Below, piece after piece: positions 1 through 42,291 of a DNA stretch of 42,291 bases. A program made the translations under genes and the position numbers. The first letter of the stretch is position 1. The number at the start of each line of letters is the position of its first letter. The notes beneath the pieces are model-generated. The model was not told where the DNA came from and made no database searches. It worked only from the letters and a program-made list of their open reading frames with translations. The stretch is from Escherichia phage Lidtsur. The DNA is taken from sequence record NC_048177.1; one strand, 5' to 3'.

Positions 1-393
1 ATGTACCGTATCTATGCAAGCGCATATCGTCAGGCAAACGCTGAGTGTGTTAATCTGGCGCTTCATTGCAAGGCACTGCGAACGGTGCAGGATATGTTCG
101 GAGTGATTCCGGTCACACTGACAGGCAAGTTTAACGATGCGTATGAGTTAAGCATGGTCTTCCCTGTCGATGGAATCTACGAAATCAGACAGGCTGTTAA
201 GCTGTTCTGTAAAGCCTTTGAACAGGACTGCATCATGGTAGTGACCGATGATGATGATGCAATCTTCATGGATTCACCATATCCGGGCAAGCCTGCTGGC
301 AAGTTTGTCAGCAAGACTGAGGCCGAAATGGAAGCCGGGCAATTCACTGCTTGGACTTACGATGGTGAGCAATTTTGGGTAGTGGAGGCATAA
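1..393 (+). CDS. hypothetical early protein (130 aa)
   Basis: ORF starts at ATG at position 1; a GGAG Shine-Dalgarno (CAACTGGAGAAATAACT) lies at the last bases of the window, so the gene is intact only if the contig is circularly permuted; acidic DDDD stretch; no recognisable domain. Confidence 0.5.
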   Translation: MYRIYASAYRQANAECVNLALHCKALRTVQDMFGVIPVTLTGKFNDAYELSMVFPVDGIYEIRQAVKLFCKAFEQDCIMVVTDDDDAIFMDSPYPGKPAGKFVSKTEAEMEAGQFTAWTYDGEQFWVVEA

Positions 394-23530: not shown

Positions 23531-24523
23531 ATGGCCGACAACTACTATCAGCCGAATCAGTTCCGTCCACACTGGGGTGGCGCGAACTCTGATAACGACA
23601 TTCACCTTGAGGTGTATGACCGTGATGTTCAGACCCAGTTCATCTACAACTCCATCTTCCGTTCCGGCCTGACCAACTTCAAGTCTGTGGCTAACCAGTC
23701 CAACACTTGGCGTGGCGACCGCCTCGGCTCCGTGACCGTCAAAGGTCGTAAGTCTGGTCAGTCTCTGGAGAACCAGCCAGTTCGCTCCGAGAAGCTGATT
23801 GTCACTGTTGATACGGTGTCTTATATCCGTATCCCGATTGACTATCAGGACGACTGGACTGCGCCGGACTTCCGTGCTGAGCTGACCCGTAACATGGGTA
23901 CATCTCAGGCGAAAGCGTTCGACCAAGCGCACGTCATCCAGCTCCAGAAGTCTGCTGACTTCGTACCGCCTGCATCTCTGGCTGGTGCGTTCAACGCAGG
24001 CATCAAGGAGAAAGTGACGCTGACTGGTACTGTAGCTTCTGAGGAAGACGACGCCAGCGCACTGGTTCACGGTCACAAGAAAGTGATTGAGGCATTCATC
24101 CGCCGCGACGCAGACCTTGGCCGTCTGGTTACGCTGATTGACCCGGCGTGGTTCAGCATTCTGCTGGAGCACAAGAAACTGATGAACGTTGAGTTCACTG
24201 GTGGCCGTGGCGTCAACGACTTCGCTATGCGCCGCGTAGCTTACGTCAACGGCGTACGCCTGATTGAGAGCAACGCTTTCCCGCAGGCTGCAATCACTGA
24301 CCACATTCTCGGCCCTGACTTCAACGTCACCGCTGAGGAAGTGAAGCGTAAGATGATTATCTTCGACCCGTCTCTGGCGCTGGTCACTGTCGAAGCCCAA
24401 CCGCTGTTCAACCGCGTGTGGGATGACGAACGTGAGATGACCAACGTACTGGACAGCTTCCACATGTACACCGTGGGTCAGAAGCGTCCTGACGTGGTTG
24501 GTGTAGTCACCACCGAAGCCTAA
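23531..24523 (+). CDS. major capsid protein
   Basis: 330 aa ORF following scaffold gene, T7 gp10-like size and position; followed by a hairpin. Confidence 0.8.
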   Translation: MADNYYQPNQFRPHWGGANSDNDIHLEVYDRDVQTQFIYNSIFRSGLTNFKSVANQSNTWRGDRLGSVTVKGRKSGQSLENQPVRSEKLIVTVDTVSYIRIPIDYQDDWTAPDFRAELTRNMGTSQAKAFDQAHVIQLQKSADFVPPASLAGAFNAGIKEKVTLTGTVASEEDDASALVHGHKKVIEAFIRRDADLGRLVTLIDPAWFSILLEHKKLMNVEFTGGRGVNDFAMRRVAYVNGVRLIESNAFPQAAITDHILGPDFNVTAEEVKRKMIIFDPSLALVTVEAQPLFNRVWDDEREMTNVLDSFHMYTVGQKRPDVVGVVTTEA

Positions 24524-24533
24524 TGGCAAACTC

Positions 24534-24557
24534 GAAGCCCTTCGCAAGAGGGGCTTC
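24534..24557 (+). terminator. stem-loop downstream of capsid gene (GAAGCCC-10nt-GGGCTTC)
   Basis: 7-bp GC-rich inverted repeat 11 nt after the capsid stop; position parallels the T7 post-capsid terminator; no strong U-tract. Confidence 0.35.
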
Positions 24558-24579
24558 TATGATTGTCACTGGAGGTTTT

Positions 24580-25128
24580 ATGACTTTACTCGAAGCAGTT
24601 AACATTGTTCTTCGGGCATTGTCGGAGCACACCGTATCCTCGACTGAGATTCGTAACCCGTCCGTAACCCTTGCACTTGACAAGATTAACGTAGCGACGG
24701 AGGAAGTTCTCACCGATGGGTGGTGGTTCAACAATATCCGAATCACCATCCCCCGCGAGGCAGATGGTAGAGTTAAATACCCCGCAGACGCACTGAGCTT
24801 CATCCCCGATGGGTTTGAGTGTATTGTGCGAGGCGGGTATCTTTACAACGCAACGTCGCAAACCTTTGTATTTACAGAGGATGTTAGCGGTGTTGTGACT
24901 TATGACCTTGAGTGGGATGACCTGCCAAGCCCGGTACAGCGCCTCATTGCGTACTCTGCCGCTGGCTCCGCATATGCCGACGACATGGGCGATAACTTGC
25001 CGCAGAGCGTGCAGGTTGGGTTCGCCACTGCGTTGCAGCAATGCCAGTCCATCCACATTCGTCAACGTCGATTTAATGCCCGCCAGCGCAAAGCGTGGTG
25101 GCGCTATGAGAGTGCTCGGAGAGGATAA
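24580..25128 (+). CDS. tail tubular protein A
   Basis: Internal ATG of track ORF after GGAGG; 182 aa; T7 gp11-like position. Confidence 0.7.
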   Translation: MTLLEAVNIVLRALSEHTVSSTEIRNPSVTLALDKINVATEEVLTDGWWFNNIRITIPREADGRVKYPADALSFIPDGFECIVRGGYLYNATSQTFVFTEDVSGVVTYDLEWDDLPSPVQRLIAYSAAGSAYADDMGDNLPQSVQVGFATALQQCQSIHIRQRRFNARQRKAWWRYESARRG

Positions 25129-27572
25129 TGCCAGTCTATCAAGGCTCTTACAAATCCATCCTCGGCGGCGTCAGCCAGCAGGTCTATACTGACCGTCAGC
25201 TATCGCAGGTTGAGGAACAGGTCAACATGACCTCTGATACCGTGCGTGGCCTCCGCAAACGCCCCGGCACCCGCCATAACCGCGACGTAAGCTCGACTAA
25301 CGTTAGCGTGTGGAGCCTTGGGAATTTTGGCCACCTCCGCTTTTACACAACCAACTTAGGCTGGGGCATCACCACGTTCGTAGTCAATACGCTGACTGGT
25401 TATGTCACTGCCATCGTAGAGACTGAAACAGTCCAGTTCATGGGCCAGTCCTCGTATCTTGTTACCTCCAACCCTGACGACATTGTGTTCACGACTGTCG
25501 GCAACACCATGTACGTTGCTAACTGTTCCAAGCTGCCTGTGCTGCTTGAGAACGAGACTCGAATGAATCCCGGTCGCCGGGGTTACTTTTTCGTCTTGGC
25601 TGGTGCATACGGCAAGACCTACTCCGTACGAATCCAGACCAGTGGCGGGGCTTACTCCGCCTCATACAAGACTCCAGAGGCCAACGCCACCAACGCCGCC
25701 ACAGAGTCCACCCCTGAGTACATCATTGGCCAGTTATCCTCTCAGCTTAACAGCCAGATTGGTGGGGCTACCGGGCTTGAGGTGGTGCAAACTGACGGCG
25801 CTTACATGTACCTGCAAATTGATGCAGCACATGGCGACCTCAACGTGTCTACTGGTACAGGCTCCACGTATGCAATAGCGTCGAATACCCACACAGTAGA
25901 CCTCACCACCAAGTTGCCTGCCCGTCTGCCATCTCAGGCTGGTGGATTCATCATGACAGTTGGTGACGCCAGTTTCGCCCAATACTTCCAGTGGAGTTAC
26001 GGAGACTCTCGCTGGATTGAGAAGAGTGCTTATGGCTCGCCGACAGGGATTAACCCAAGCGGTATGCCGCTCGTGTTCAAGACCACCACTACTCAGAACC
26101 AGCATTCGTTTGCACAGGGTACGTGGCCGGGGCGAACCGCTGGAGACGACAACAACAACCCAATCCCAGCATTCACTGATGCCAATGGCGTCGGGATTAC
26201 TGGGCTGGCGTCGTTCCAAGGCCGCCTGATTATCTTCTCCGGGCCGTACATCTGCATGGGTTCCAGCAATAAGGATGACCGTCAGAACTTCTTCCGCACC
26301 ACTGTTACGCAGGTGCTGGACGACGACCGTATTGAGTTCACTGCATCCAGCTTCGCCGGGGCATCGTTCCGGTATGGGGTGCCGTTCAACTCTGACCTGA
26401 TTCTGGCGAGTGAGGAACACCAAGCGGTAATCCCCGGACGCAACCAGATTCTGACGCCGAACAACGCCACCGCAGTGCTGACTTCGACGTATCAGATGGA
26501 CACTGGAGTAGCGCCTACTACCTCTGGCCGCAGCCTGTATTACTCGTACCCGCGCTCCAATAGCTCGTTCTCCGTGAAAGAGATGGTGCCGTCTGGCTAC
26601 ACCGACTTGCAGTATGTGAGTCAGGATGTGACAGACCACCTGCCGACCTATCTGGAGGGTGCGAACAGCTACATCTCTGCCAGCACCACGAACAACATTG
26701 TTGTGTTCGGCTCCAACTCTGAGCGGTCTACTCTGTACATCAACGAGTACCTGTGGTCTGGTGATGAGAAGGTGCTGTCTTCTTGGCATCGCTGGGAAGT
26801 GTATGGCACTATCCATGCTGCATGGTTCGTGCGCGAGGTGCTGGTGATGCTGGTCGAGCAGAATGGACACATGAACATGCTCACGCTGTCCATGCGAGAT
26901 TCCCCTGACCCGACCGACCCGGCGCGATTCCTGCCCGCTGTTGACTATGCTCAACTGATGACAGTAACCAACCCGGCCACTGATACCTCATACATCCAGT
27001 TCGCTGCTGATGGGGTGCAGAAAGCGCTGTGGGATATCATTGCCTCCCGGTACACGGCTGATGGAAATACTGATTTCCTCACAACTGTGGTGCCATCCGG
27101 CAGCTACATCGGTGCTGAGGTGGGCGTGCTGTCTGTGGACACTACCAATCGCCGACTGTACTTGCAGCCATCTTACGGCAGCACATCGCTGTATGTTGGG
27201 CTTCGGTTCACTGCGACGTTCAGCCCGACGCCACCACGAGTGTTCAACCAAGACGGCTCGTACATGGATGTGAACAAGATGATTATCATGGACTACAACT
27301 TCACGTTGCGGTACACCAGCTTGTTCAACATCACAGCCAGTGACCGGGGAGCGTACTCTGCGCTCAACATCATCTCCAGCCCGATTCGGTACACGAGTCA
27401 GGAGCTTGGCCTTGAGTCTGCTATGCTGGCGAAGCGTGCGCACCTGAAAGTCCGTATGGGCCTTGAGGTCGAGTCGAGCAGCATGGTTGTCACATCGAAC
27501 ACGGCAGGCGACCTGAACATTCAGGGTTTGGGTTACTACATCAAGTTCTACAATCGCACTCGGAGAATCTAA
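25128..27572 (+). CDS. tail tubular protein B
   Basis: 814 aa ORF overlapping upstream stop (TAATG); T7 gp12-like size and position. Confidence 0.75.
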   Translation: MPVYQGSYKSILGGVSQQVYTDRQLSQVEEQVNMTSDTVRGLRKRPGTRHNRDVSSTNVSVWSLGNFGHLRFYTTNLGWGITTFVVNTLTGYVTAIVETETVQFMGQSSYLVTSNPDDIVFTTVGNTMYVANCSKLPVLLENETRMNPGRRGYFFVLAGAYGKTYSVRIQTSGGAYSASYKTPEANATNAATESTPEYIIGQLSSQLNSQIGGATGLEVVQTDGAYMYLQIDAAHGDLNVSTGTGSTYAIASNTHTVDLTTKLPARLPSQAGGFIMTVGDASFAQYFQWSYGDSRWIEKSAYGSPTGINPSGMPLVFKTTTTQNQHSFAQGTWPGRTAGDDNNNPIPAFTDANGVGITGLASFQGRLIIFSGPYICMGSSNKDDRQNFFRTTVTQVLDDDRIEFTASSFAGASFRYGVPFNSDLILASEEHQAVIPGRNQILTPNNATAVLTSTYQMDTGVAPTTSGRSLYYSYPRSNSSFSVKEMVPSGYTDLQYVSQDVTDHLPTYLEGANSYISASTTNNIVVFGSNSERSTLYINEYLWSGDEKVLSSWHRWEVYGTIHAAWFVREVLVMLVEQNGHMNMLTLSMRDSPDPTDPARFLPAVDYAQLMTVTNPATDTSYIQFAADGVQKALWDIIASRYTADGNTDFLTTVVPSGSYIGAEVGVLSVDTTNRRLYLQPSYGSTSLYVGLRFTATFSPTPPRVFNQDGSYMDVNKMIIMDYNFTLRYTSLFNITASDRGAYSALNIISSPIRYTSQELGLESAMLAKRAHLKVRMGLEVESSSMVVTSNTAGDLNIQGLGYYIKFYNRTRRI

Positions 27573-28304: not shown

Positions 28305-31001
28305 ATGCCAATTATGCGTGACCAGCGTGGCGCTAACCTCAACGCTGCGCAACAGGGCGTACCGAATGTGCAGCAGGCTCAGACTCCGTTTAGTCTCGCA
28401 GGCCGCGACACAAGCATCGATACGTTCCCTACAGAATCCATCTCCCGCATCATGAACATGGCCAGCCAGTTGGCTGGTCGTGTCACTGAGCGTGCGGTGG
28501 AAGAAGAGTATTTGAAAGGTGCTAACGCGGCTGCTTCCGGCCAAGCAGTGGAGGATTTGGACTCCAACTGGTTGACAGCCGAGTTTCACAAGGCTGGTTA
28601 CAATGACCAGTACAAGCGTATGCAGATGGCCAACGTAGCCTCTGAAATCTCAGCCAACATGACTGAGTACGCTAAGATGAATCCGCAGGACTTCCTGAAA
28701 GTCATCGACCAGAAGACCACAGGGTTGTTCGACAATACTGATGGCATGACGCTCAAAGGGCGTCAGGCTCTGTTAGAGAACCAACTGACATTCAGCAATA
28801 CGCTGATTCGCACGCAGGCTGCACAGCACGGTAAGTACCTTGTCGAGCAGCGTGCATCAATGTACAACTCGCAGGGTAACACCCTCGTTACTCTGGCGGC
28901 TCAAGCCAAAGCATCCGGCGACGGTGGCGCGTACGCGAACGCTACGGCTGCTACGCTGGCATGGGCCAAGTCCATCATGGCTGACGACAAGCTGCCACTG
29001 GACGTGCGCCAGAAGCAGGTCACGTCGATGATGAGCAACATGCTCTCGCAAGACCTGCGCACCCCGGTAGAGACTGCTGTTAACTCCGGTCTGTTCAACG
29101 ATTTGCCTGCTGATGATTTGGCCAAATTACAGGGCCAGATTCGTGAGTCAAAGAACCGCACTGAGGTGCAGGACAACATGGGTCTGCTGGAGCAGTATGG
29201 CCAGCTCAATGCTCGTCAGGCTGTGTTCGGTGACGTTGACCCTAAGACTTACAGCAGCATCCTCCAGCAGCTCGCCGACAAGAAGCTAATCTCTGCATCT
29301 GGCTACAGCTCTGCTATCGAGGGTTATTACAAAGACTACGAGAAGCAAGCCAAGACCAGCCAGCTCGGTCAGGCTTATGCCACCGGGAACCAGACGTACA
29401 TGTTGCAGAAGGGCGCGAGCGAGCAAGACGGTGCCGACGCATTCATCAAAGCTCGAATGAAGCAGCCGGGGGCAACAGCAAGCTCCGTGGCGTTCGACCT
29501 GCTACAGATTGGTGCGCAGACTGGCTTCCCTACTGCGTACAAATCCGCAGCCAAACTGCTGGAGCCATCGCTGTCTAACTTCGGCACCGTCGAGCAGATG
29601 AACCCTGACGCAGCTCAGTCCATCACTGGTATGATTGACCGCATCACTGTGGCCGAGAATCAGGGTGACAAGACTGCGTGGACTAAACTGCTGTCTGGTC
29701 TGTCGGAAGAGAACCAAGAAAAGATGGTCTACATGCGCGAGCAGATTAAGGCTGGCAAGACCATTGACCAAGCAGGGCAGGGCTACATCAAGCAGCAGGA
29801 AGCGTATGCTGGGCTGACCCCTGCACAGAAGTCTCAGGTGCTGACTCAGCGCCAGAAAGACGTGAACAGCGCAGTCCAAGAGATGGACTCTATGGGCTGG
29901 TGGTCGCGCACAGGTCTGGCTATCGCTGGTATTTTCAGTGATGACGCACGCAACGAGTATATGGCTCGCGTGTCTGCCGGGGATGTGAGCGCACATGACC
30001 AGCTTGCAGAGGTGCAGGCTGCGTACAAAGAAGAGTTACAGGCTGTTCTGCTGAATAGCCCGAACCTCAGCGTGGAAGGTATGAAGAGCCGCGCCGCCGC
30101 TAACTTGGCGAACCGAGTTCTTCGTGTGGGTGAATCCACATTCAGCGCTGGACAAGTTCTGATTGCGCCGCGTGGTCGCACTGTACAGAGCATGTTGGGG
30201 CTTGACCCGAACGTTGCGCCTGACCGTGTGGGACGCGCCATCGCAGAGCTTGACCAGACGAAGCCACCAGAAGGGTACTCGCCAATCTACCAGTTCTATC
30301 CTGACGGTAGCTTGGGTGTTACCTTTTCCAATAAAGACGGCATTGCTACTGGCGAGATTCGTAAAATCTCTCCGCAGGTTATTCAGGAGCGCATCCGTGA
30401 GGATGACCGTGCTGCGGCTACAGCCAACAATGAAGTCTATGGCGATGGGAAACTCTTCGTAGACAGTTCGAGCAACATCGGTATTCGCGTTAACGGTATG
30501 AACACCGCTGGCGTTGAAGAAAGTTATATGCTGCAAGCTCGCGGCAAGCTCATTGAGTTCGAGGGTATCCGCAACCAGACGTATCGTGACAGCCATGGTG
30601 TAGAAACCAATGGCGTAGGCATCTCTAACCGTAGCCCGTACTTCGCAGAAGGTCAGGCTGCCGGGATGCGCGGCGGTACAGAATGGTCTGCGAGAACTAT
30701 CCACGATACGTTCGTGAACCATACCAACATGGTCGCCCGTCAAATGCCCGGTCAGGCATCTGCTTTGGGGTGGAGTCGTGATAACGACGCCCAGTTCCAA
30801 TTCATGATGCAGATGGGTTATCAGGCTGGCTCTGATTGGTATCGTTCTCCGGGCGCGTACAGTAAGCTCGCTGATGCCATCCGGCTCGGCGAACGTGAGC
30901 AAGCAGTGCAGGCACTGGCAGAGACGCCAGCGTTTAAGCTCTCTCAAGACGACCGTAAGCGGTACTACATCCAAACACTACTCGCAGGTATGCAGGAATG
31001 A
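28305..31001 (+). CDS. internal virion protein B
   Basis: 898 aa, same length as I recall for phiKMV gp36; position; no domain verified. Confidence 0.6.
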   Translation: MPIMRDQRGANLNAAQQGVPNVQQAQTPFSLAGRDTSIDTFPTESISRIMNMASQLAGRVTERAVEEEYLKGANAAASGQAVEDLDSNWLTAEFHKAGYNDQYKRMQMANVASEISANMTEYAKMNPQDFLKVIDQKTTGLFDNTDGMTLKGRQALLENQLTFSNTLIRTQAAQHGKYLVEQRASMYNSQGNTLVTLAAQAKASGDGGAYANATAATLAWAKSIMADDKLPLDVRQKQVTSMMSNMLSQDLRTPVETAVNSGLFNDLPADDLAKLQGQIRESKNRTEVQDNMGLLEQYGQLNARQAVFGDVDPKTYSSILQQLADKKLISASGYSSAIEGYYKDYEKQAKTSQLGQAYATGNQTYMLQKGASEQDGADAFIKARMKQPGATASSVAFDLLQIGAQTGFPTAYKSAAKLLEPSLSNFGTVEQMNPDAAQSITGMIDRITVAENQGDKTAWTKLLSGLSEENQEKMVYMREQIKAGKTIDQAGQGYIKQQEAYAGLTPAQKSQVLTQRQKDVNSAVQEMDSMGWWSRTGLAIAGIFSDDARNEYMARVSAGDVSAHDQLAEVQAAYKEELQAVLLNSPNLSVEGMKSRAAANLANRVLRVGESTFSAGQVLIAPRGRTVQSMLGLDPNVAPDRVGRAIAELDQTKPPEGYSPIYQFYPDGSLGVTFSNKDGIATGEIRKISPQVIQERIREDDRAAATANNEVYGDGKLFVDSSSNIGIRVNGMNTAGVEESYMLQARGKLIEFEGIRNQTYRDSHGVETNGVGISNRSPYFAEGQAAGMRGGTEWSARTIHDTFVNHTNMVARQMPGQASALGWSRDNDAQFQFMMQMGYQAGSDWYRSPGAYSKLADAIRLGEREQAVQALAETPAFKLSQDDRKRYYIQTLLAGMQE

Positions 31002-34000
31002 TTACTCAAGAATCGCTCGACAAGTTCATGGCTCCCAAGCAGGGGGCCAATGCCCCCACGCTGGTGATTCCGGCTCCGGTGCAGGCTGAGACTCTCAGCA
31101 CCCCACTGCAAGAGGCTACCCGTCAGGGGGCCATCGAGCAGTTTGAAAGAATGCAGGAACTGGAAGCGACGCCAATGTCAACGGCACTGAGCGCTTCTGT
31201 TAAGAACTGGGATACGACTCAGCTATTTGATGCTGCAATCAACAAGCCCACATTCCAAGTAGACCCGAACTTCAAGCCCAACGAGGCTTTACAGAATGTC
31301 CAGTTCCCAGTTACTGAGGATGACCGGACGTTCCTGTTCAAGTCCAAATCTATGGACGAGTTTAACTGGAGGACTCAGCAGTTGCAGGAGATGCGCGACC
31401 GCAGTGAGCTGGCTCGTACAGCTCCTGTCATGAACGCTGTCGTGCAATTCGCTGACCCTCTATATCTCGCCACTGACCTGCTCTCTATGGGAGCAGGCAC
31501 TGCCCTGAAACTTGGCCGAATCGGAACCGCAGCCATTGGCGCGGCCACCACTGCTGCGACTATGGCGACAGTGGGTAGCGAGGCTCGCCCGGTATCGGAC
31601 AACGAGATTATCTTCGCTGCTGCACTGCATGGTGCTGCTACTGCCGCTGTGTTCAAGCCAGCCAAAGCAGAGCGCTCACTGGCTGACATGTCGCCGGAAG
31701 AGTTCGCAGCAGAGATGCAGCGCCGCAACGGTATTGACCCTAACAACCCACCGCAGTTCGACCCGAACAATGCCATGTCTCCATTGGCAATGTCGCTCGG
31801 TGTCGGGCCTCGTGGAGCAGTGGTGACTGATGAAGTGCCAGCCGCTATCCGTGACGCTGCCCAGCGCGGCCTTGACCTTGCCCGCCGTGGTGAGCAGACG
31901 AACCCGAAACGTCCGTGGCTTGAGTGGTCACTGTACAAGACGTTCTCTGGTCACTCTGAGGACTCCAAAGCTCTGGCAGACCGACTGCTTGATGACCCGC
32001 TTAATCCTAACGCTACGTCTGCCGCAGCTATCCAGCGCGAGACTCAGGCTCGGTTCGGCGTGCTGCTCAACCAGTACGAAGACACCCTGCGTGTGTCACT
32101 CGCCAATCAGGGATGGGGCAACTTGCGTCGCTTCTATGACCCGGTGGGCTACCGCCGTGCTCAGCAGGAGTTCGAGTCTGCCGTTCGTATGGAACTCGAC
32201 AAGCGCATGATTGACCCTAACTTCCGTGGCGCTAACACTGACGTGGCCAACGCTGTTGACCGACTGGGTGAATACTCTCGTGCTGTCGGTAAAGAGCTGG
32301 AGCGCAAAGGTATGGTTGAACCGGGCTTCGTTGAGAAGAACCCGTATTACTATCCGCGCCGCATGAACGTAGCCAAAGTCGAGGAAGCTGAGCGCCTGCT
32401 CGGTAAGAAAGCGTTCATGAAGCAGATGACTACAGCAGTGCAGCGTGGCCTCAGCTCTGACCGCCCGACTGCCAACGTCATCGCCCATGCGATGGTTGAG
32501 CGTGCTCGGCGCAAAGGCTACGGTATCGACAACTCAGGTCACATCATCAACAAGGAGGGCCGTGATGAGCTGCTCGAAATTATCAACAACGCGAAGGGTT
32601 TCGATGAGGCTGCCAAGGCCCGTGCATCCGCATTGCTTCGTCCCGCTGGCGAGGACGCTGGCCGACCGTCGATGCTCAAGGCTCGTATCAACATTGACAT
32701 GATGCACCAGCTTGGCCCTAACTTGCAGGTGCGCGACCTGTTCGATGACAGCATCACCAGTATGATGGACAGCTACAACCGCCGCATTACCGGGCGACTG
32801 GCTCTGCATGAGGCTGGGTTGGGTACTGACGCTGAACGTGCGGCTGCTCGTGAGGCTCTGGCCAAATCTATTGCTGACGGCACTAAGCGCCGGGAAGCAT
32901 TACAGCAGTACGACAACATCGTCAACTATTACATGGGTGCGCCTGTTGGTGAAGAGATGCCGCAGTTCATGCGCCAGCTCTCTGCACTGACTCAGGCTAC
33001 TGGTCTGGCTGCATCCGGCCTGTGGCAGCTCGTGGAGTATGGTACGATGATGCAGAGGTTCGGTGCCATGAACACGTTCAAGGCCATGCTGCGTACGCTG
33101 CCGGAGGCTCGTGCACTTCTTAAACAGATGAAGGTATCTGCTAAGGATGGACGGCAATTGGCTCTGGACACAGAGGAAGCACTGACCGCTGCCGTGGCTG
33201 GTGATATCCGTATGCGCCCAATCTTGCAGCACTACGATGATATGTTCTCTGCTGACAAGTCTCCGTGGGTTATGCGCCTTGAGCACGCCCGTGACGCCAC
33301 CATGTTCATCAACATGCAGAAGTACATCCACTTCCACCAGACCCGCACCAATGCGGCGCTGGTAATGCAGACACTGCGCAAGGCTGCTGAGGGTGATGCC
33401 AAGGCTATCGCTGCCATGAAGACCTACGGTGCCAACGATGCACTGCTGGCTGATGTGCGCAAAGAGGTGGCCAAGTCCGGCACCAAGCCTGAGTCTTGGG
33501 ATGAGGGTGTATTCAACCGTACCCGTACTGTGATGATGAATGCTATGGACGATGCCATTGTACGCGCCCGCGTAGGCGAGCTGCCTGCATTCGCTGAGTT
33601 CAGTACACTCGGTAAGTTCCTGTTCACGTTCCGCCGCTTTGTGGCAGCGACGCATAACAAGACACTGGTTGGTACATGGAATCGTGATGGTGCTCGTGGT
33701 ATGGCCACACTTATGGCGTATCAGTTCCCACTGGCTATGATGGCTACGGCTGCGAATAACGTAATCTCTGGTAAGGCTTTCAAAGACCCTACCACGATGA
33801 CTCCGGGTAAACTGGCTGGCCAAGCCCTGAACTACATCGGTGCAATCGGCTTTGCATCCGAGTTCACTGGTGTCCTGACTGGGCAGCAGCGCAGCTTCGG
33901 TGCACCGGGCCTGTTGTTCCTTGACCGCATGTACGGCGTTGCTGGCGCAACCACTGGTGCTGCTGGTAATCTCCTGACCGGAGATACTGACCAAGCGGTT

Positions 34001-34102
34001 AACGATGCGCGTAGAGCGGCTGGTAACATCATTCAAGCACTTCCTCTCATCTCCATTGTGCCGGGTGTCCGTGCACTCAATGAAGCAGTTAAGGGCGAAT
34101 AA
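30998..34102 (+). CDS. internal virion protein C (ejectosome component)
   Basis: 1034 aa ORF overlapping upstream stop (ATGA); T7 gp16-like position. Confidence 0.6.
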   Translation: MITQESLDKFMAPKQGANAPTLVIPAPVQAETLSTPLQEATRQGAIEQFERMQELEATPMSTALSASVKNWDTTQLFDAAINKPTFQVDPNFKPNEALQNVQFPVTEDDRTFLFKSKSMDEFNWRTQQLQEMRDRSELARTAPVMNAVVQFADPLYLATDLLSMGAGTALKLGRIGTAAIGAATTAATMATVGSEARPVSDNEIIFAAALHGAATAAVFKPAKAERSLADMSPEEFAAEMQRRNGIDPNNPPQFDPNNAMSPLAMSLGVGPRGAVVTDEVPAAIRDAAQRGLDLARRGEQTNPKRPWLEWSLYKTFSGHSEDSKALADRLLDDPLNPNATSAAAIQRETQARFGVLLNQYEDTLRVSLANQGWGNLRRFYDPVGYRRAQQEFESAVRMELDKRMIDPNFRGANTDVANAVDRLGEYSRAVGKELERKGMVEPGFVEKNPYYYPRRMNVAKVEEAERLLGKKAFMKQMTTAVQRGLSSDRPTANVIAHAMVERARRKGYGIDNSGHIINKEGRDELLEIINNAKGFDEAAKARASALLRPAGEDAGRPSMLKARINIDMMHQLGPNLQVRDLFDDSITSMMDSYNRRITGRLALHEAGLGTDAERAAAREALAKSIADGTKRREALQQYDNIVNYYMGAPVGEEMPQFMRQLSALTQATGLAASGLWQLVEYGTMMQRFGAMNTFKAMLRTLPEARALLKQMKVSAKDGRQLALDTEEALTAAVAGDIRMRPILQHYDDMFSADKSPWVMRLEHARDATMFINMQKYIHFHQTRTNAALVMQTLRKAAEGDAKAIAAMKTYGANDALLADVRKEVAKSGTKPESWDEGVFNRTRTVMMNAMDDAIVRARVGELPAFAEFSTLGKFLFTFRRFVAATHNKTLVGTWNRDGARGMATLMAYQFPLAMMATAANNVISGKAFKDPTTMTPGKLAGQALNYIGAIGFASEFTGVLTGQQRSFGAPGLLFLDRMYGVAGATTGAAGNLLTGDTDQAVNDARRAAGNIIQALPLISIVPGVRALNEAVKGE

Positions 34103-36483
34103 TGGCGAACAGCTATAACACCTATGTGGCGAACGGGACGCAGACTGCGTTCCTCGTCACCTTTGAACAACGAGTGTTCACGCAGATTCAGGTGTACGTC
34201 AACTCTGAGCTACAGACTGGCGGCTACACCTACAACTCCGTGACCAAGCAAATCGTATTCACATATCCACCGACTGCTGGCGCTATTATCCGCTTGCAGC
34301 GGTACACTGACGAAACCCTGCTCAACAAGTTTGGGCAGGACGCCGCATTCACCGGGCAGAACCTTGATGAGAACTTTGAGCAGATTCTGTTCAAAGCAGA
34401 AGAGACTCAGGAGGCGTGGCAAGCTCCGTTAGACCGGGCGCTGCGCATCCCTAACTCTGAGGTGTCCATCAGTGCGCTGCCGACCGTGGCATTCCGTAAG
34501 AACAAGGCACTGGGCTTTGACGATAATGGTCAGCCCTTCATGATTCCTCTGGTGGATATTCCAGACTCCGCACTGGCTATCGCGCTGGCTATGCCGGACG
34601 GCGGCAAGTGGATTGGTACTCTGGCTGGTGGCACGTTCCTGAACCGTCAGGATACGGTGTGCCTGTCCGAGTTCACCAACAACTCTGCGTACGCTACTGT
34701 GTCTGCGGCGGTGCAGGCTTGCTTCGATTATGCAGCAGCCAACAACAAAGTCGTTGATGCTCGCGGCTGGGTAGGGACTCTCAATGCCAACGTTACCATG
34801 ACCAATATTGAGGTGGTAGGCGGTACGTGGAAAGGCACCTCTGACGTATTCATCGTCAACTCACTGTTCCGCAACTTCAAAATCAACAACCTTCGTCTGC
34901 GTCCATACGGCGGCGACACTCGTATCCGCAACGGTCTATTTGATGGTAAGCCTACGCTGAGCAAGGTAGCGAGTATTATGCTCCAAGCAATCCCTGCCAC
35001 TGGCACCATTGAGGTAACTGACTGTGAGTTCCGCAACGGTCTGTATGGTATCTTGCAGCAGGGTACTGGTTCAGTTATGACTCGTGGGCTGTTCCGCAAC
35101 CTGTCGTTCTATGACATGGGCGGTGACGGTATTGAGCTTAACGTTGTCCAGAACCACTATGACGACGGCTGCTTGATTGAGAACATCGTGCTTGAGAATA
35201 TCGACAGCACTGGTCAGGCTCCGATTAACAACTCCAACTGGGGTATTGGTATCGGCGTGGCTGGTAGCTCTCCGTATGGCCTCGACACGCCAGACAGCTA
35301 TTACGCCAAGAACATCACTATCCGCAACGTCAAAGCGCGGCGCTGCCGTCAGGTTGTGCACTTCGAGCAGGTTCGTGACTCTCTGATTGAGAACATCGAC
35401 GGCGACCCTGACCAGAACGTATCGAACGGCTCTGGCCTTACTATGGCTACTGTGCTGTGCTATGGTGCGCGTCGCGTAACCATCAATGGTGTGCGCGGTG
35501 AGCCTGTAGTCACGTCAGGTACTGACCCGCACAGCATCCGTATTGTGATGCTGGAGTGGGGTACTAACGCAGGTGTTGGTGCTCGCGGGCCATGTCAGCA
35601 CATGACTGTGCGTAACGTGTCCTCGCGCAACGGGCGCTTCTATGCTGGCGTTGGCTGTCAGGACGTTGGGCTGGATAACACAGCTACGTTCGAGAACATC
35701 GACTGCTACAACTTCCGGCTGTTCGGTGTTGCTCGTGAGCTGAATCTGGCAAACATTACCTGCACAGTGTTCGACTGCATTGGCGATGACTCTGCTGGCG
35801 GTACGTCCTCTAACGGTTATCTGGCCGTAGGCCGCACCACACTCAACATGACCAACGTTAATGCGTTGTCTGAGGACTTGGTTGCTAACCAAGGATGGAG
35901 CCGCTGTGCGTACTCGTACGTGTCCAGCATTGCATCCAACGTGTATGCCCGTCCATATCCCCGTCAAGGTATTGACGGTGGTATCGGCGTACCCGTGTGG
36001 CCGAGCAACCGAGTGTACGTGATGCCTGATGCCACTGACGTAAACATCACTAACTGGGACGGTACTCAATTCCCTGCTGGACGCGAGTTCGTAGAGGGCG
36101 ATTTGATTATCCGTACGGACGGTAAGTTCTTCACAGTAACCCGTAGCGGTGCTTATATCCCAGCTATTGCTGAGTATCAGGTTAAGGCTGCTGCTGTTGG
36201 ACAGACTTATCTGGCAAGTAACTACCCAATGGACGGTAACAAAGGCACGATGGTCTGGATTTACAGGTACATGTTGACTCCGGGCACCCACATCAACATT
36301 CCGGGTGCTGGTGCTGGCGGTAGCGTATTGCAGACCACCATCGCTCGCGGGCCGTACCGTACGGATGTGAACAACCCAACCAGTGAGATTCGTGTCGGTA
36401 TCTCTGACCCAATCCAGACGGCGATTCCGGCAGGTACGCAGCTCTCTGCGACTTACCCAATCTCGTTCCGTTCACCAGCATAA
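34102..36483 (+). CDS. tail fibre / tailspike with T7-type N-terminal anchor and beta-helix C-terminal region
   Basis: N-terminal ~150 aa (MANSYNTYVANGTQTAFLVTFEQRVF...) resembles the T7 gp17 anchor; remainder shows periodic ENI/NIT/RNV motifs typical of a right-handed beta-helix. Confidence 0.8.
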   Translation: MANSYNTYVANGTQTAFLVTFEQRVFTQIQVYVNSELQTGGYTYNSVTKQIVFTYPPTAGAIIRLQRYTDETLLNKFGQDAAFTGQNLDENFEQILFKAEETQEAWQAPLDRALRIPNSEVSISALPTVAFRKNKALGFDDNGQPFMIPLVDIPDSALAIALAMPDGGKWIGTLAGGTFLNRQDTVCLSEFTNNSAYATVSAAVQACFDYAAANNKVVDARGWVGTLNANVTMTNIEVVGGTWKGTSDVFIVNSLFRNFKINNLRLRPYGGDTRIRNGLFDGKPTLSKVASIMLQAIPATGTIEVTDCEFRNGLYGILQQGTGSVMTRGLFRNLSFYDMGGDGIELNVVQNHYDDGCLIENIVLENIDSTGQAPINNSNWGIGIGVAGSSPYGLDTPDSYYAKNITIRNVKARRCRQVVHFEQVRDSLIENIDGDPDQNVSNGSGLTMATVLCYGARRVTINGVRGEPVVTSGTDPHSIRIVMLEWGTNAGVGARGPCQHMTVRNVSSRNGRFYAGVGCQDVGLDNTATFENIDCYNFRLFGVARELNLANITCTVFDCIGDDSAGGTSSNGYLAVGRTTLNMTNVNALSEDLVANQGWSRCAYSYVSSIASNVYARPYPRQGIDGGIGVPVWPSNRVYVMPDATDVNITNWDGTQFPAGREFVEGDLIIRTDGKFFTVTRSGAYIPAIAEYQVKAAAVGQTYLASNYPMDGNKGTMVWIYRYMLTPGTHINIPGAGAGGSVLQTTIARGPYRTDVNNPTSEIRVGISDPIQTAIPAGTQLSATYPISFRSPA

Positions 36484-36798: not shown

Positions 36799-38558
36799 TG
36801 GATTTACAACGCCGCATGGTGATGGCAGGAATCGTTCGCGCTCACTACGAGAACAACTTCCCGCTGTTCCTGCATGACTACTTCGCATGGCTGGGCTTTG
36901 ACCTCACTGAAATGCAGCTCGACATTGGCCGCTACATGGCCGACCGGACGCTCAAGAACAAGTGCGTCATGGCTCAGCGCGGTGAGGCTAAGTCCACCAT
37001 CGGTATTGCTCGCGCCCTGTATGAGTTCGTCCAGATGCCAAACGCCACTGTGCTGCTGGTATCTGGTTCGGACGATTACGCAGGTACGCTCTCGCACGCT
37101 ATCGTGTCTGCCATTATGCAGTGGGAGCGCCTTGAGTGGCTGCGCCCTGAGACTCGCGCTGGCGCACGTACGTCCTATACGGACGGCTTCGACGTGCACC
37201 ACGCATTCCGTATCCCTGACAAACAGCCCTCTGTCAAAGCGGTCGGTATCTTCGGCCAGTTGCAGGGGAACCACGTATCATTGCTGATTGCGGATGACGT
37301 GGAGACTACCAGTAACGGTAGCTCTCCTGCCAACCGCGCCCGTATCGCTACCCTGACCAAAGAGTTCGCCGCTATCGCCAACGACGGTGCAGAGATTCTA
37401 TACCTCGGCACGCCTCAGACTCAGGATTCCATCTATAACTCGCTGCCACAGCGTGGCTTTGACGTACGCATCTGGCCCGGTCGCTTCCCTACGCCGGAAG
37501 AAGAAGAGCGGTACGGAGGCTGTCTGGCCCCGTGGATTAAGCAGAAGATGGATGGCCACCCTGAGCTGCGCACTGGATACGGCATTCTTGGTAATCGCGG
37601 TGCTCAGACTGACCCGCAGCGCTACTCAGAAGAGAAGCAGTTGCAGAACGAACGTGACTATCAGCAGGCAGGCTTCCAGCTCCAGTTCATGCTGGACACG
37701 TCGCTGTCTGACGCGCTCAAACAGACACTGCAACTTCGTGACTTAATCCTGTTCCACGGCTCTCCGCAGTCGGCACCGGAGTATTTGCACTGGTCTAATC
37801 ATCCGCGTCATCTGGCAGAGCTGCCTATGGACTTCCCGCTCGCCCGCGCCCAGCTTTATCTGGCCGCTGATTTCTCGGAGACTTATGTACCATTCACGAA
37901 TACCAAGGCGTTTCTTGACCCTGCTGGTGGTGGGACGGACGAATCAGTTATCTTTGCCACAGCTTCTATCGGCCCGTTTATCCATGTCCTCGGTATGCAC
38001 GTCTACCACGGAGGGCAGACGGAAGAGAACATCAAGACGGCGGTAGAATGGCTGCATAAGATGGGCGTTCTGCACATCACCATTGAAGACAACATGGGCC
38101 ACGGTGCAGTAACCAACATGTATCGTGGTGAAATTAAGCGGCAGGGATTGGCCATCGGCTGCGAGGGTACTTACTCCAGCGGCCAGAAAGAAGTGCGTGT
38201 GATTAGCCGACTCAGCCCAATCCTCCAGCGCCACCGCGTGGTGATGCACTGGTCTGTGCTTGAGGAAGACTTGCGCCTATGCCGCAACATGCACAATGGC
38301 GGGCGGGAATACAGCTTGTTCTGGCAGATGCAGAACATCACGCAGGACAAGAACGCAATACCGCACGATGACCGAATTGAAACCCTATCCGCTGCCGTGT
38401 ACCTCCATGCTGAGGTGCTCCAGCAAGACGAACATGAAGAGGCCCAGCGCCGTGAGGCTAAGGCTGCCAAAGAGTTCTTGGCTAACCCAATGGGTTACGA
38501 TGACTCTAAATGGCGCAGCCACAAACCCGTGCGCGGAACTCGTCGGAGAATTAGATAA
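36798..38558 (+). CDS. terminase large subunit (DNA maturase B)
   Basis: 586 aa, same length as T7 gp19; Walker A-like QRGEAKST and Walker B-like LLIADDVE. Confidence 0.85.
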   Translation: MDLQRRMVMAGIVRAHYENNFPLFLHDYFAWLGFDLTEMQLDIGRYMADRTLKNKCVMAQRGEAKSTIGIARALYEFVQMPNATVLLVSGSDDYAGTLSHAIVSAIMQWERLEWLRPETRAGARTSYTDGFDVHHAFRIPDKQPSVKAVGIFGQLQGNHVSLLIADDVETTSNGSSPANRARIATLTKEFAAIANDGAEILYLGTPQTQDSIYNSLPQRGFDVRIWPGRFPTPEEEERYGGCLAPWIKQKMDGHPELRTGYGILGNRGAQTDPQRYSEEKQLQNERDYQQAGFQLQFMLDTSLSDALKQTLQLRDLILFHGSPQSAPEYLHWSNHPRHLAELPMDFPLARAQLYLAADFSETYVPFTNTKAFLDPAGGGTDESVIFATASIGPFIHVLGMHVYHGGQTEENIKTAVEWLHKMGVLHITIEDNMGHGAVTNMYRGEIKRQGLAIGCEGTYSSGQKEVRVISRLSPILQRHRVVMHWSVLEEDLRLCRNMHNGGREYSLFWQMQNITQDKNAIPHDDRIETLSAAVYLHAEVLQQDEHEEAQRREAKAAKEFLANPMGYDDSKWRSHKPVRGTRRRIR

Positions 38559-39238
38559 TGTCCCTCGCTTCCATCACAAACGCCCAACGCTACAACGTGG
38601 GTAATGCAGTGAACATCGCGGCGCATAATACTCAGCGCTTCATCAACAACACCAAGGCACCAACAGCGGCTCAGGAAGCTCTGATTGCTGACAGTATGCA
38701 GGACGCAGCAGATGCCCTTGCCGTTGCCGGGTACTTCGCACTGCCCGCTGGCACTGTCACCGTAAGCGACGGCGCAGCCACTGCCGTGCTCAACTCTGCT
38801 GGTGCAGACAGTCACCCAGCCACTGCCGTTGTTACTGGCGGTGCACTGACTGGTGTGAAGATTACGGCAGACACCACGGCTATCGTTGACCTGAACGATA
38901 CGGTCGAGATTCGTCGGGCTGACGGCTCCGTGACTGGTATCACTACTGGCTCTACCCGTGTAGCCGCTGGAGTGCTGGCCAACGTCCGGCTGCCTATCAC
39001 TGCTGATGCGGTGGTCAACAACGGTACTGTGTCTGTGCGCAACTCTGCCGCAGCAGACCCGCACAACGCCACCGTCGTAGTCAACAACCAAGGTGTCCTG
39101 CAAGGTGTGAACCTCGCGGCCACTGCTGCTATCGTCGATAACGGCGATGCACTCACTGTGCCTGTAACTGGCACGTACACAACCACTGCCACCATCTCCG
39201 TTGCTAACGGTGTGGTTACTGGCATCGTACTGTCCTAA
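38558..39238 (+). CDS. Ala/Thr/Val/Gly-rich repeat protein of unknown function (226 aa)
   Basis: GGAGA SD; internally repetitive (ATAVLNSAGAD / ATAVVTGGALTGV / VTGITTGS / ANGVVTGIVLS); N-terminus shares a motif with the next ORF. Confidence 0.5.
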   Translation: MSLASITNAQRYNVGNAVNIAAHNTQRFINNTKAPTAAQEALIADSMQDAADALAVAGYFALPAGTVTVSDGAATAVLNSAGADSHPATAVVTGGALTGVKITADTTAIVDLNDTVEIRRADGSVTGITTGSTRVAAGVLANVRLPITADAVVNNGTVSVRNSAAADPHNATVVVNNQGVLQGVNLAATAAIVDNGDALTVPVTGTYTTTATISVANGVVTGIVLS

Positions 39239-39942: not shown

Positions 39943-40294
39943 CAACCATTCGCGTATGGGCGCGGTGGAGGCTCGTATGCAATCCGTAGAAACTCGCCTC
40001 GACAAACACGAGATTCAAATTGCCAACCTCGAAAAAGGTGACGCTGCCATGATTGCTAAGCTGGCGGAGAACGACTCCCGCTGGGTTGAGATTCAGCAGC
40101 AATTGCGCGTTGTCGAGCAAATTCAGGATATCCAAAAGACAATGAGCCATATCGGTAAACTGTTCACGTACACGGCTCATGCCGTCAAGTGGTGCCTGCT
40201 AACCGCATCCCTTGTTAGCGGTATCTACCTCGCTATCAAAGCTGGCGACTTAGCATCGTTGCTGGCATTCATTCAAGCTCTAATGGGGATGTAA
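39911..40294 (+). CDS. membrane-anchored coiled-coil protein, candidate holin or lysis regulator
   Basis: AGGAAGG SD; N-terminal heptad-like region then C-terminal hydrophobic segments (WCLLTASLVSGIYLAI, LASLLAFIQALMGM); immediately upstream of endolysin. Confidence 0.4.
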   Translation: MTEQKKEPTPNNHSRMGAVEARMQSVETRLDKHEIQIANLEKGDAAMIAKLAENDSRWVEIQQQLRVVEQIQDIQKTMSHIGKLFTYTAHAVKWCLLTASLVSGIYLAIKAGDLASLLAFIQALMGM

Positions 40295-40830
40295 TGACTA
40301 ACTTTGAAATCTGTATGAAGTTCACCGGGCTGGCTGAGGGTGGCTATACCAAGCTGCCCGGTGACACTGGAGGGGAAACCAATCATGGAATTAGTGACGC
40401 TCGTGATGGAAAGCTGGATGGTCGAGCTTGCGGTGTCCCTACTGGGCTTGGCGGGACTATTTGTGTTCCTATCAAGCAGCTCACCAAAGAGCAAGCCGAA
40501 GCTATCTATCGCCGGGACTACTTCACCCCAATCCGTGGTGACGAGTTACACCCTGCGATTGCATGTGCCGTGTTCGACTTCGGTGTCAACTCCGGCGTCG
40601 CCCGCGCAGCTAAAGCTCTACAGCGGGTATGCGGTGTTGCACAGGACGGTGTTATCGGTGCTGCAACCGTGGCAGCGGCCAAGCGTCTGGAACCTCACTC
40701 CGCAGCAGCATCCATCTGTGACATTCGTATTGAGTTCCTAAAGGCTTCTACAGCCCCGACAATCGTTCGGTATAGGGATGCCTTGGTTGCTCGTGCAAAA
40801 CGCTGTAGCGCTTACTGTGCGACGTTATAG
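40294..40830 (+). CDS. endolysin, GH108-type N-terminal domain
   Basis: FTGLAEGGYTKLPGDTGGETNHGIS matches the EGGY...GG.T..GI signature of GH108 muramidases; last gene before the terminal non-coding region; no N-terminal TMD. Confidence 0.75.
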   Translation: MTNFEICMKFTGLAEGGYTKLPGDTGGETNHGISDARDGKLDGRACGVPTGLGGTICVPIKQLTKEQAEAIYRRDYFTPIRGDELHPAIACAVFDFGVNSGVARAAKALQRVCGVAQDGVIGAATVAAAKRLEPHSAAASICDIRIEFLKASTAPTIVRYRDALVARAKRCSAYCATL

Positions 40831-40899
40831 GGGCATTGAAAGCTGGGACATTGAACAGGCGTAATACCCCGGCTTGAAAATTGACTATTTGTGCGTGGG

Positions 40900-41410
40900 C
40901 CTCCCTCGACTCGAAGGAGCGCCTGCGCCCCCGTACGCCTGTGCGCGTGCGCGTGCATGACGTGTGCGCATTATGCGCGTGTGCCTGCGCGTGCGGTATT
41001 GCTCGCGTGCGTGCGGTAACAGCTCGCGCGTGCCCGTTTCCATTGTCGCGGTGTGGCGTGCTGTGCTCTGCGCGGTGCTGTGCCACTGCTGGCTGTGCCA
41101 CTGCTACCACTGGACGCGCCTGCGCTGGCCTGCGCTGGTATCGGCTCCGGTCGTGGCGGGTATCTATCTCTTTTGCCTGCGTGCTGCGCCTGCGTCCTGT
41201 CACTGCCTGCTAGCGCCTGCTATCTGCCTGCGCTCGCCTGCCTCCAGCTACTCCAGCTAATCGCGTCACTGCTACTAGCCGTTGCTAGCCGTGATACTTG
41301 CTATCCGTTCGCGTTCTCTCGCTATCCACTGCGTGTCCAGCTCGCTCCGCTCCGCGCTCCGCTACCGCACTGCGTGCTGCGTCGCTTACGCTGCGTATCG
41401 CTTACAGCTT
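40900..41410 (+). repeat. A-depleted GC-rich short-repeat tract, probable terminal-repeat / packaging region
   Basis: About 500 bp almost free of A on the + strand, built from reiterated TGCGCG, CCTGCGC, GCTGCG, GCTCCGC units; non-coding; sits between last and first gene. Confidence 0.5.
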
Positions 41411-41570
41411 ATACTGTAACAGTTACTTTCATTTACTCACTGATTTATAAAGAGTTTTAGACGGTTATTAGCTACTGATTGAGCTATTCAAGTATCTATC
41501 CAATCAAATATTTAATCCTATTGAATACATACACTTACCTACATTTTGAGCTATTCAGTGAAAATAATTC

Positions 41571-41599
41571 TTGCAATGCTGTTTGTGATTTGCTGTAAT
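41571..41599 (+). promoter_or_regulatory. sigma70-type early promoter candidate P1
   Basis: -35 TTGCAA (41571-41576), 17-bp spacer, -10 TGTAAT (41594-41599). Confidence 0.55.
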
Positions 41600-41675
41600 T
41601 CATCTCGCCGGGTAGCAATGCAGCGCTACACGGTGGGCTAGATGGTTAGCCAGCTCTTTAACAATCTGGAGTGTA

Positions 41676-41704
41676 TTGACAAGCGAGTCTCACTATGCTG
41701 TAAT
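41676..41704 (+). promoter_or_regulatory. sigma70-type early promoter candidate P2
   Basis: -35 TTGACA (41676-41681), 17-bp spacer, -10 TGTAAT (41699-41704). Confidence 0.65.
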
Positions 41705-41756
41705 ACGCTCCAGATTGACAGGGCAAGCAAGCCTGACAGTCAGTAGTAAAAAGTGG

Positions 41757-41786
41757 TTGACAAGCCGATTCAAGATGTGATGTAAT
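41757..41786 (+). promoter_or_regulatory. sigma70-type early promoter candidate P3
   Basis: -35 TTGACA (41757-41762), 18-bp spacer, -10 TGTAAT (41781-41786); P2 and P3 share the TTGACAAGC core. Confidence 0.6.
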
Positions 41787-42291
41787 CGGCACCGAGTTGA
41801 AAGGATGAAAAGCATCCTGCTCTGAGTGAACGCAAACTGGCCGCGTAGTGTCACGGCTCACTGGGTATCCGCCGCAGGTTGGAACTGGGTGAGGCATCGC
41901 CGAAAGGCAACGGTATCGCAACATTGCTAACGCCGTAGGGGTAGCGCCCGATGCAGGGAACAGAGAAGCGCGATAGACGCAGCGCAGTATCAGTACAATC
42001 CCAAACGTCTTATAAGCATTGTAGACAGTAGGGGACGTAGCAAAACACACTCGACTTTGAGCTGGCGCGTAGCAGGTTGCGCAGGGTATGACTGAGTGTT
42101 GAGCGGAGTCGCTGAAAGATACTTGAATCCGATGATAAATGCCGGATTATGCGAAATGGGCGGGGCGATTTTTCAGGGTAGTGAATCCGACAAGCCATTC
42201 CATGCCGAACAAACCTAGTACGCTACTGGTACGGCGCGTCACAATGGGTTCACTATCCACCTGAAAATAGCCAACAACTGGAGAAATAACT

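Follow-up and report, generated by a model that had tools for sequence, protein, structure and literature searches.

The 42,291-nucleotide genome of Escherichia phage Lidtsur (NC_048177.1; one strand, 5' to 3'; hereafter the window) carries a large gene at 34102..36483 on its plus strand. The product of this gene is very probably the only tailspike of this Bonnellvirus (Autographiviridae) podophage, a beta-helix enzyme that hydrolyses colanic acid. Colanic acid is a fucose-rich slime polysaccharide (M antigen) common to many Enterobacteriaceae. A first-pass annotation made from the DNA sequence had proposed at this position a candidate polysaccharide depolymerase, with the beta-helix motifs of enzymes such as capsule or O-antigen depolymerases. 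The depolymerase part of this proposal is supported, as the protein belongs to a family with experimentally shown activity; the substrate can be narrowed, almost certainly, to colanic acid.

The gene as such is already known: it is annotated in GenBank and RefSeq and is discussed in the isolation paper. In an exact-sequence look-up the encoded protein was identical to QBZ71551.1 / YP_009821645.1, 'putative tailspike colanidase'. According to PMC7552041, E. coli K-12 MG1655 was the isolation host of Lidtsur, a member of the genus Bonnellvirus whose genome (MK629528) has 42,291 bp and 54.6% GC. The tailspike gene of Lidtsur is flanked by the genes for internal virion proteins and for the terminase, an arrangement shared with phage J8-65, and the rest of the genome is ~80-82% identical in nucleotides (nt) to J8-65-like bonnellviruses. 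An AAGGG Shine-Dalgarno-like sequence was read upstream of the ATG, and the stop/start overlap with the preceding gene suggests that the two genes are translationally coupled. The open reading frame (ORF) and the three segments on which the first-pass annotation had based its beta-helix prediction were all recovered, each segment once: IENIVLENID at amino acids (aa) 359-368, NITIRNVKA at aa 404-412 and IENIDGDPD at aa 429-437.

34102..36483, plus strand: tailspike ORF, ATG to stop, 793 aa plus stop (ORF list, exact-sequence match, PHROG 6117)
34100..34104, plus strand: TAATG overlap of the preceding internal virion protein gene (30998-34102, 1034 aa) with the tailspike gene (sequence read, ORF coordinates)

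The protein matched PHROG 6117 'colanic acid degradation' over aa 89-790 (E 4.4e-225). By tblastn, 261 phage records matched the Lidtsur spike; full-length identity is 58-60% to the spikes of J8-65, NST1 and the '-sur' phages, all annotated as tailspike colanidases (59.8% over aa 1-789 for the NST1 enzyme). A sequence search of the PDB recovered 6e0v, the colanidase tailspike gp150 of phage Phi92, which matched aa 163-789 (E 1.5e-72). In a large-database search 45 homologues were found, and the 39 with a match to the full body (P0001-P0039) all carry PF27800 'WcaM'. Two apparent peculiarities of the body were rejected. A local Pfam scan left it without any domain because PF27800 is absent from that Pfam version; the domain is precomputed on all close homologues, and the empty body is an artefact of library age. 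In megablast, other phages matched only nt 1-737 of the gene, as if the body were novel; tblastn and PHROGs show it to be a diverged member of a large family.

Hydrolysis of colanic acid is documented within this family. The colanic acid-degrading enzyme of NST1 (CAE, HM214492) has been obtained in pure form; it is a hydrolase that sets free the repeat unit of colanic acid and increases the number of reducing ends (PMC9143390). For Phi92 gp150, hydrolysis of the beta-1,4 Glc-Fuc linkage of colanic acid is reported, according to the passage of PMC13450770 that cites Xu et al. 2025. Phage J8-65 produces halos that expand on mucoid E. coli, and it reduces colanic acid of high molecular weight (PMC4179555). 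When the body region was placed in a neighbour-joining tree, NST1 and gp150, mutually 30% identical, were separated by the midpoint root, and Lidtsur was nested between the two. The Lidtsur spike is thus bracketed by two verified hydrolases, so that hydrolysis of colanic acid would be the activity expected of it on phylogenetic grounds.

The closest known systems differ from Lidtsur in instructive ways. NST1 and the J8-65-type colanidases share with it the genus, the gene position and the length (790-794 aa). Whereas the first 245 residues are 80-94% identical, identity drops to 40-58% over aa ~247-770; their body is a different cassette from that of Lidtsur, which groups with other lineages. 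Phi92 gp150 (PDB 6E0V/6E0W) is ~31-33% identical; it sits on a myophage baseplate as one of several fibres and has a different N-terminal attachment region, whereas the Lidtsur protein is the sole spike of a podophage. The O-antigen endoglycosidase tailspikes of P22, Sf6, HK620 and CBA120 show 8-11% identity and no detectable sequence similarity to the Lidtsur spike. Their substrates are strain-specific O-antigens and not a polysaccharide common to several genera. The target of the Lidtsur spike is almost certainly colanic acid and not a type-specific capsule or O-antigen.

The predicted structure agrees with the family assignment. The model shows stacked three-strand rungs that match solved beta-helix proteins, and it shares the fold of the solved family member 6E0V, a right-handed beta-helix followed by a C-terminal domain. 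Hence the right-handed parallel beta-helix body proposed by the first-pass annotation is borne out by structure prediction and by comparison with solved structures. Confidence was poor in the N-terminal part (pLDDT <50 at aa 70-181), which is compatible with an intertwined oligomer but does not prove one.

34747..35871, plus strand: right-handed parallel beta-helix body, aa ~216-590, preceded by a capping helix (aa 200-214)
35872..36480, plus strand: C-terminal domain, aa 591-793, mixed beta, aligning with the C-terminal part of Phi92 gp150
35005..35496, plus strand: conserved putative catalytic core, aa 302-465, homologous to bacterial WcaM (residue conservation)
35050-35064, plus strand: ILQQG motif of the conserved core
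35122-35145, plus strand: GDGIELNV motif of the conserved core, with D342 and E345
35236-35265, plus strand: NWGIGIGVAG motif of the conserved core, with W380
35344-35367, plus strand: CRQVVHFE motif of the conserved core, with Q417, H420 and E422

Seven residues of the core (D342, E345, N347, W380, Q417, H420 and E422) do not vary across 40-43 members of the family, NST1 and Phi92 gp150 among them, and the family consensus around them (GDxIELNV, NWGIGIG, RQxxHxE) is kept throughout in Lidtsur. D342/E345 and E422 are likely candidates for the catalytic acids.

The body and the anchor of the spike have separate histories. Homology to spikes with other anchors (P22 head-binding and myophage types) and to Phi92 gp150 starts at aa 162-173 in tblastn and phmmer alignments, right after a conserved ALAIALAMxDGGKWIG segment. 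DNA identity to J8-65 is ~80% up to ~34750, falls to 46-67% up to ~36400 and then returns to ~85% or more in a sliding comparison.

34570..34617, plus strand: module junction, aa 157-172, ALAIALAMPDGGKWIG (tblastn/phmmer alignment starts)
34840..36410, plus strand: variable cassette, diverging from other bonnellvirus colanidases (sliding DNA/protein identity, megablast limit)

Two homologues from the large-database search show opposite patterns around the ALAIALAMxDGGKWIG segment (34570-34617), which marks it as an exchange point between anchors and bodies. The metagenomic homologue P0005 has an N-terminus identical to that of Lidtsur up to ~aa 170 and a different body; P0001 has a body 95% identical to that of Lidtsur and a more diverged anchor. 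The closest bodies belong to P22-type-anchored spikes (P0008/P0009; 62-63% identity overall, 74-84% over aa 300-450). Such spikes include gp25 of Murrayvirus IME_EC2 and its counterpart in C130_2, which have a PF09008 P22 head-binding anchor on an unrelated phage backbone, entirely different from the marginal PF03906 anchor of the Lidtsur spike. The exchange of anchors and bodies, together with the divergent body, explains the 'unique version' of the spike noted in the isolation paper as a mosaic cassette, and makes the Lidtsur spike a clear case of module shuffling between unrelated phage groups.

Compared with its Enterobacter-associated relatives, the Lidtsur body is 95% identical in protein and 85-89% in DNA, and is, judged by these values, under strong purifying selection. 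The possibility that Lidtsur acquired its body recently by horizontal transfer was considered and rejected: its 85-89% nt identity to these relatives is barely above that of the flanks (~80%). As the body differs by 11-15% in DNA and by only 5% in protein, the cassette is old and not a recent import.

Several points weigh against colanic-acid hydrolysis by this spike. We infer both the activity and the bond specificity of the Lidtsur variant from its relatives, to which the demonstrations of hydrolysis are confined. The Lidtsur body is 51-54% identical to NST1/J8-65 and 33% to Phi92 gp150, and the isolation paper terms the spike a 'unique version' (PMC7552041). The structure prediction is of a monomer, with trimer and groove location outside the model. 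The role of the candidate acids is read from conservation; in the literature we found no paper defining colanidase catalytic residues or describing 6E0V. Finally, the enzymes validated on Klebsiella capsule types include a class of 'colanidase-like' depolymerases from Klebsiella phages (PMC13385381), so that the substrate does not follow strictly from the family.

The alternative that survives best accepts family and mechanism but shifts the substrate, either to a colanic-acid-like polysaccharide of another enterobacterium (an Enterobacter exopolysaccharide or a K108-like capsule) or to a differently acetylated or pyruvylated colanic acid. It would account for the distinctness of the cassette (46-67% identity in nt and 51-54% in aa to other bonnellvirus colanidases) and for its 'unique' status in the isolation paper. 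It also gains from the 93%-identical copies in assemblies of Enterobacter kobei and E. asburiae, where they lie on contigs that span whole phages, and from the Klebsiella depolymerases with a 'colanidase-like' domain, the K108 capsule being reported to resemble colanic acid (PMC13385381). We nevertheless consider it unlikely. Lidtsur was isolated on E. coli K-12, whose sole described capsule-type polysaccharide is stress-induced colanic acid, and the two verified hydrolases that bracket the protein are only 30% identical to each other. In addition, all invariant core residues are kept, and the phages with the most similar bodies, Murrayvirus IME_EC2 and C130_2, are E. coli phages.

A related and equally tentative proposal is that the Lidtsur-type body is a functionally distinct specificity cassette. 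It appears to have been exchanged at the ALAIALAMxDGGKWIG junction between bonnellviruses and phages with P22-type-anchored spikes, and would recognise a chemically different colanic acid or an Enterobacter/Klebsiella capsule that resembles colanic acid. If this improbable case were true, the host spectrum of the Lidtsur lineage would differ from that of its J8-65-type congeners, and the pair of Lidtsur and J8-65-type spikes would lend itself naturally to working out which parts of the colanidase/WcaM fold determine specificity.

It is very unlikely that the spike only binds, that is, that a colanidase fold which has lost catalysis recognises colanic acid or a lipopolysaccharide with colanic-acid repeats. 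Colanic acid can indeed be an essential receptor for a podophage, as for POP72 (PMC6390001). However, every invariant acidic or polar residue of the core is retained in Lidtsur, and the purifying selection on the body described above also argues against a loss of function. A polysaccharide lyase acting by beta-elimination, as the 'pectate-lyase-fold' label of the first-pass annotation might suggest, can practically be dismissed: in established carbohydrate chemistry the Glc-Fuc bond has no uronic acid at the position required for beta-elimination, and fold similarity to the GH87, GH28 and GH110 hydrolases was equally high in the structure comparison. The characterised members are hydrolases, NST1 having been assayed as one that releases repeat units (PMC9143390) and gp150 cleaving the Glc-Fuc bond as cited in PMC13450770 (Xu 2025). 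Hence 'pectate-lyase-like' is right for the fold and not for the chemistry.

With colanic-acid hydrolysis as the preferred reading, the following mechanism can be proposed. Residues 1-160 would anchor the presumably trimeric spike to the tail, probably at the adaptor/nozzle, and the right-handed beta-helix (residues ~216-590) would bind colanic acid. Cutting of the polymer by the helix would be endolytic, with repeat-unit oligosaccharides as products; the bond attacked is most likely Glc-beta-1,4-Fuc, which joins successive repeats. Catalysis would be carried out by acidic side chains on adjacent rungs, with D342/E345 and E422 as candidates and H420, Q417 and W380 possibly lining the site. By this cleavage the virion would make its way through the slime layer and reach the outer membrane, at which a secondary trigger, presumably a secondary receptor, would start DNA ejection. 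Enzyme that is released or free would yield plaque halos.

The putative catalytic core links the phage spike to a protein of the host. The NCBIfam WcaM models matched aa 306-464 of the spike (E 2e-20), with 72.9 bits against an equivalog cut-off of 794.6 (TIGR04004 / NF007517). In hhalign the spike core aligned with E. coli K-12 WcaM over 278 columns (probability 99.5%, E 1.5e-22), and BLASTP against E. coli WcaM gave 36% identity over 154 residues (E 1e-19). By these comparisons the spike is a homologue of WcaM in its core and not a WcaM orthologue. E. coli WcaM (b2043; TIGR04004 / PF27800) is encoded by the last gene of the colanic-acid cluster. It has the homologous beta-helix core, but is a bacterial protein of 464 aa without the virion anchor and the phage C-terminal domain that are both present in the Lidtsur spike. 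All family-invariant acidic and polar residues are retained in it. Phage spike and cluster-encoded host protein thus appear to share one putative catalytic core, and the shared invariant residues suggest that WcaM itself may be a colanic-acid glycosidase. In the literature we found no paper assigning an activity to WcaM.

The N-terminal module would attach the spike to the virion. Scanned alone, aa 1-162 matched PF03906 with 26.6 bits (E 5.6e-6); in the full-length protein the score was 22.9 bits, the gathering cut-off being 25.2. When the N-terminal region was scanned alone, the domain was found in 5/5 genus members. PHROG tail-fibre N-terminal families match the Lidtsur anchor with E values down to 6e-19. 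The profile of the genus anchor matches the N-termini of the podophage tail fibres 8vbx gp47, 8es4 Gp44 and 23sh gp9 and of the phiAB6 spike 5js4, at E values between 2e-7 and 7e-3. To other bonnellviruses the anchor is 80-94% identical. A direct profile comparison with T7 gp17 aa 1-200 was not significant (E 0.43), and the term 'T7-type' is therefore valid at the level of the Pfam family only. Of the conserved T7-type anchor previously proposed, an Autographiviridae-type anchor with a marginal PF03906 match stands.

34102..34587, plus strand: virion-anchor module, aa 1-162, T7-tail-fibre-type domain (PF03906, marginal; Pfam, PHROG and profile matches)
24523-25128, plus strand: tail tubular protein A (PHROG 446 and 457 'tail protein', for A and B)
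25128-27572, plus strand: tail tubular protein B/nozzle (PHROG 446 and 457 'tail protein', for A and B)

The orthologues of the tail tubular proteins in Enterobacter-assembly relatives carry PF17212 Tube and PF25675 Phage_nozzle. By analogy with T7-like tail architecture, tail tubular proteins A and B/nozzle (24523..27572) are likely the docking platform for the anchor of the spike.

The spike had also been proposed to be the only large receptor-binding protein and hence to define the host range. The first part is confirmed: among the plus-strand ORFs of at least 150 aa, PHROGs and annotated relatives pointed to no second tail-fibre or tailspike-like gene. The other ORFs of this size belong to replication and nucleotide metabolism, polymerases, head, tail tube and nozzle, internal virion proteins, terminase and lysis. 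Portal, scaffold, capsid and polymerase ORFs were assigned via their counterparts in annotated relatives, and the remainder are hypotheticals without a tail-fibre match.

The second part goes too far. The spikes of J8-65 (from E. coli) and BHUENT7 (Enterobacter) are 96% identical, those of RZ4 (Cronobacter) and Kc261 (Kosakonia) 98%; between one pair and the other, identity is 91-92%. As near-identical colanidase spikes thus occur on phages from four genera, the claim that the spike defines the host range is overstated. Bonnellvirus Kc261, with a J8-65-type spike, lysed 1/11 K. cowanii strains (PMC8402661). The spike is probably needed for infection, yet does not alone set which strains are infected; the pattern is consistent with a ligand found throughout the Enterobacteriaceae and with productive infection depending on other factors. 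For Lidtsur, a further caution concerns the role of the polysaccharide itself. The colanic-acid capsule of E. coli K-12 MG1655 is described as stress-induced, and colanic acid may therefore be a barrier that has to be removed rather than, as for POP72, an essential receptor. A large receptor-screen preprint holds no data on colanidase phages.

Enterobacter kobei assemblies contain complete phage contigs of ~42 kb whose spikes are 93% identical to that of Lidtsur, and members of the Lidtsur-variant cluster are recorded from E. asburiae as well. This occurrence also speaks against a host range set by the spike alone, and it hints at Enterobacter as a natural host of the Lidtsur-type spike. Complete bonnellvirus genomes of ~42 kb were seen as single contigs in the Enterobacter kobei assemblies GCA_024451375.1 and GCA_027267635.1 and in the Logan runs ERR10670868 and ERR10670872. 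Such contigs in bacterial isolate assemblies are ~81% identical in nt to the Lidtsur genome, with the spike at 93%. As this type of phage is strictly lytic and yet present whole in isolate assemblies, they imply a carrier-state infection or contamination.

Colanidases are used for clearing colanic acid from plasmid preparations and for making colanic-acid oligosaccharides; they also serve to improve yields in fermentation and act as 'donor' enzymes when phages are combined in synergistic cocktails (PMC4179555, PMC13450770, PMC9143390). In this context the Lidtsur spike, with a body ~52% identical, is a divergent second variant from the bonnellviruses and adds one more enzyme for comparison; its value is modest and practical. 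The assignment is correct but ordinary, and will not surprise the specialist.

Some further features of the genome were noted. Whereas J8-65 has an annotated terminal repeat region of 259 bp, no terminal direct repeats were found between the first and last 700 nt of the Lidtsur record. In the ~1.4 kb (40830-42291) after the gene for a GH108-type endolysin (40294-40830) there is no convincing ORF. At the other end, an ORF of 130 aa (1-393, plus strand) has its ATG at position 1 of the window; its counterpart in an Enterobacter-assembly relative carries PF23780 (S-AdoMet lyase), an anti-restriction function of the T3 type. Directly after the large terminase lies an ORF of 226 aa (38558-39238, plus strand) that is conserved in the genus and similar to gp51 of LIMEzero. 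It matches PHROG 9732, a family without an assigned function, and in its C-terminal part weakly a 'virion structural protein' family; it also contains a diverged internal DNA repeat, the copies being 249 nt apart. Nearly all genes lie on the plus strand. GC skew is positive (0.06-0.12) from position 1 to ~22 kb and then near zero or slightly negative; the change falls where the structural module begins.

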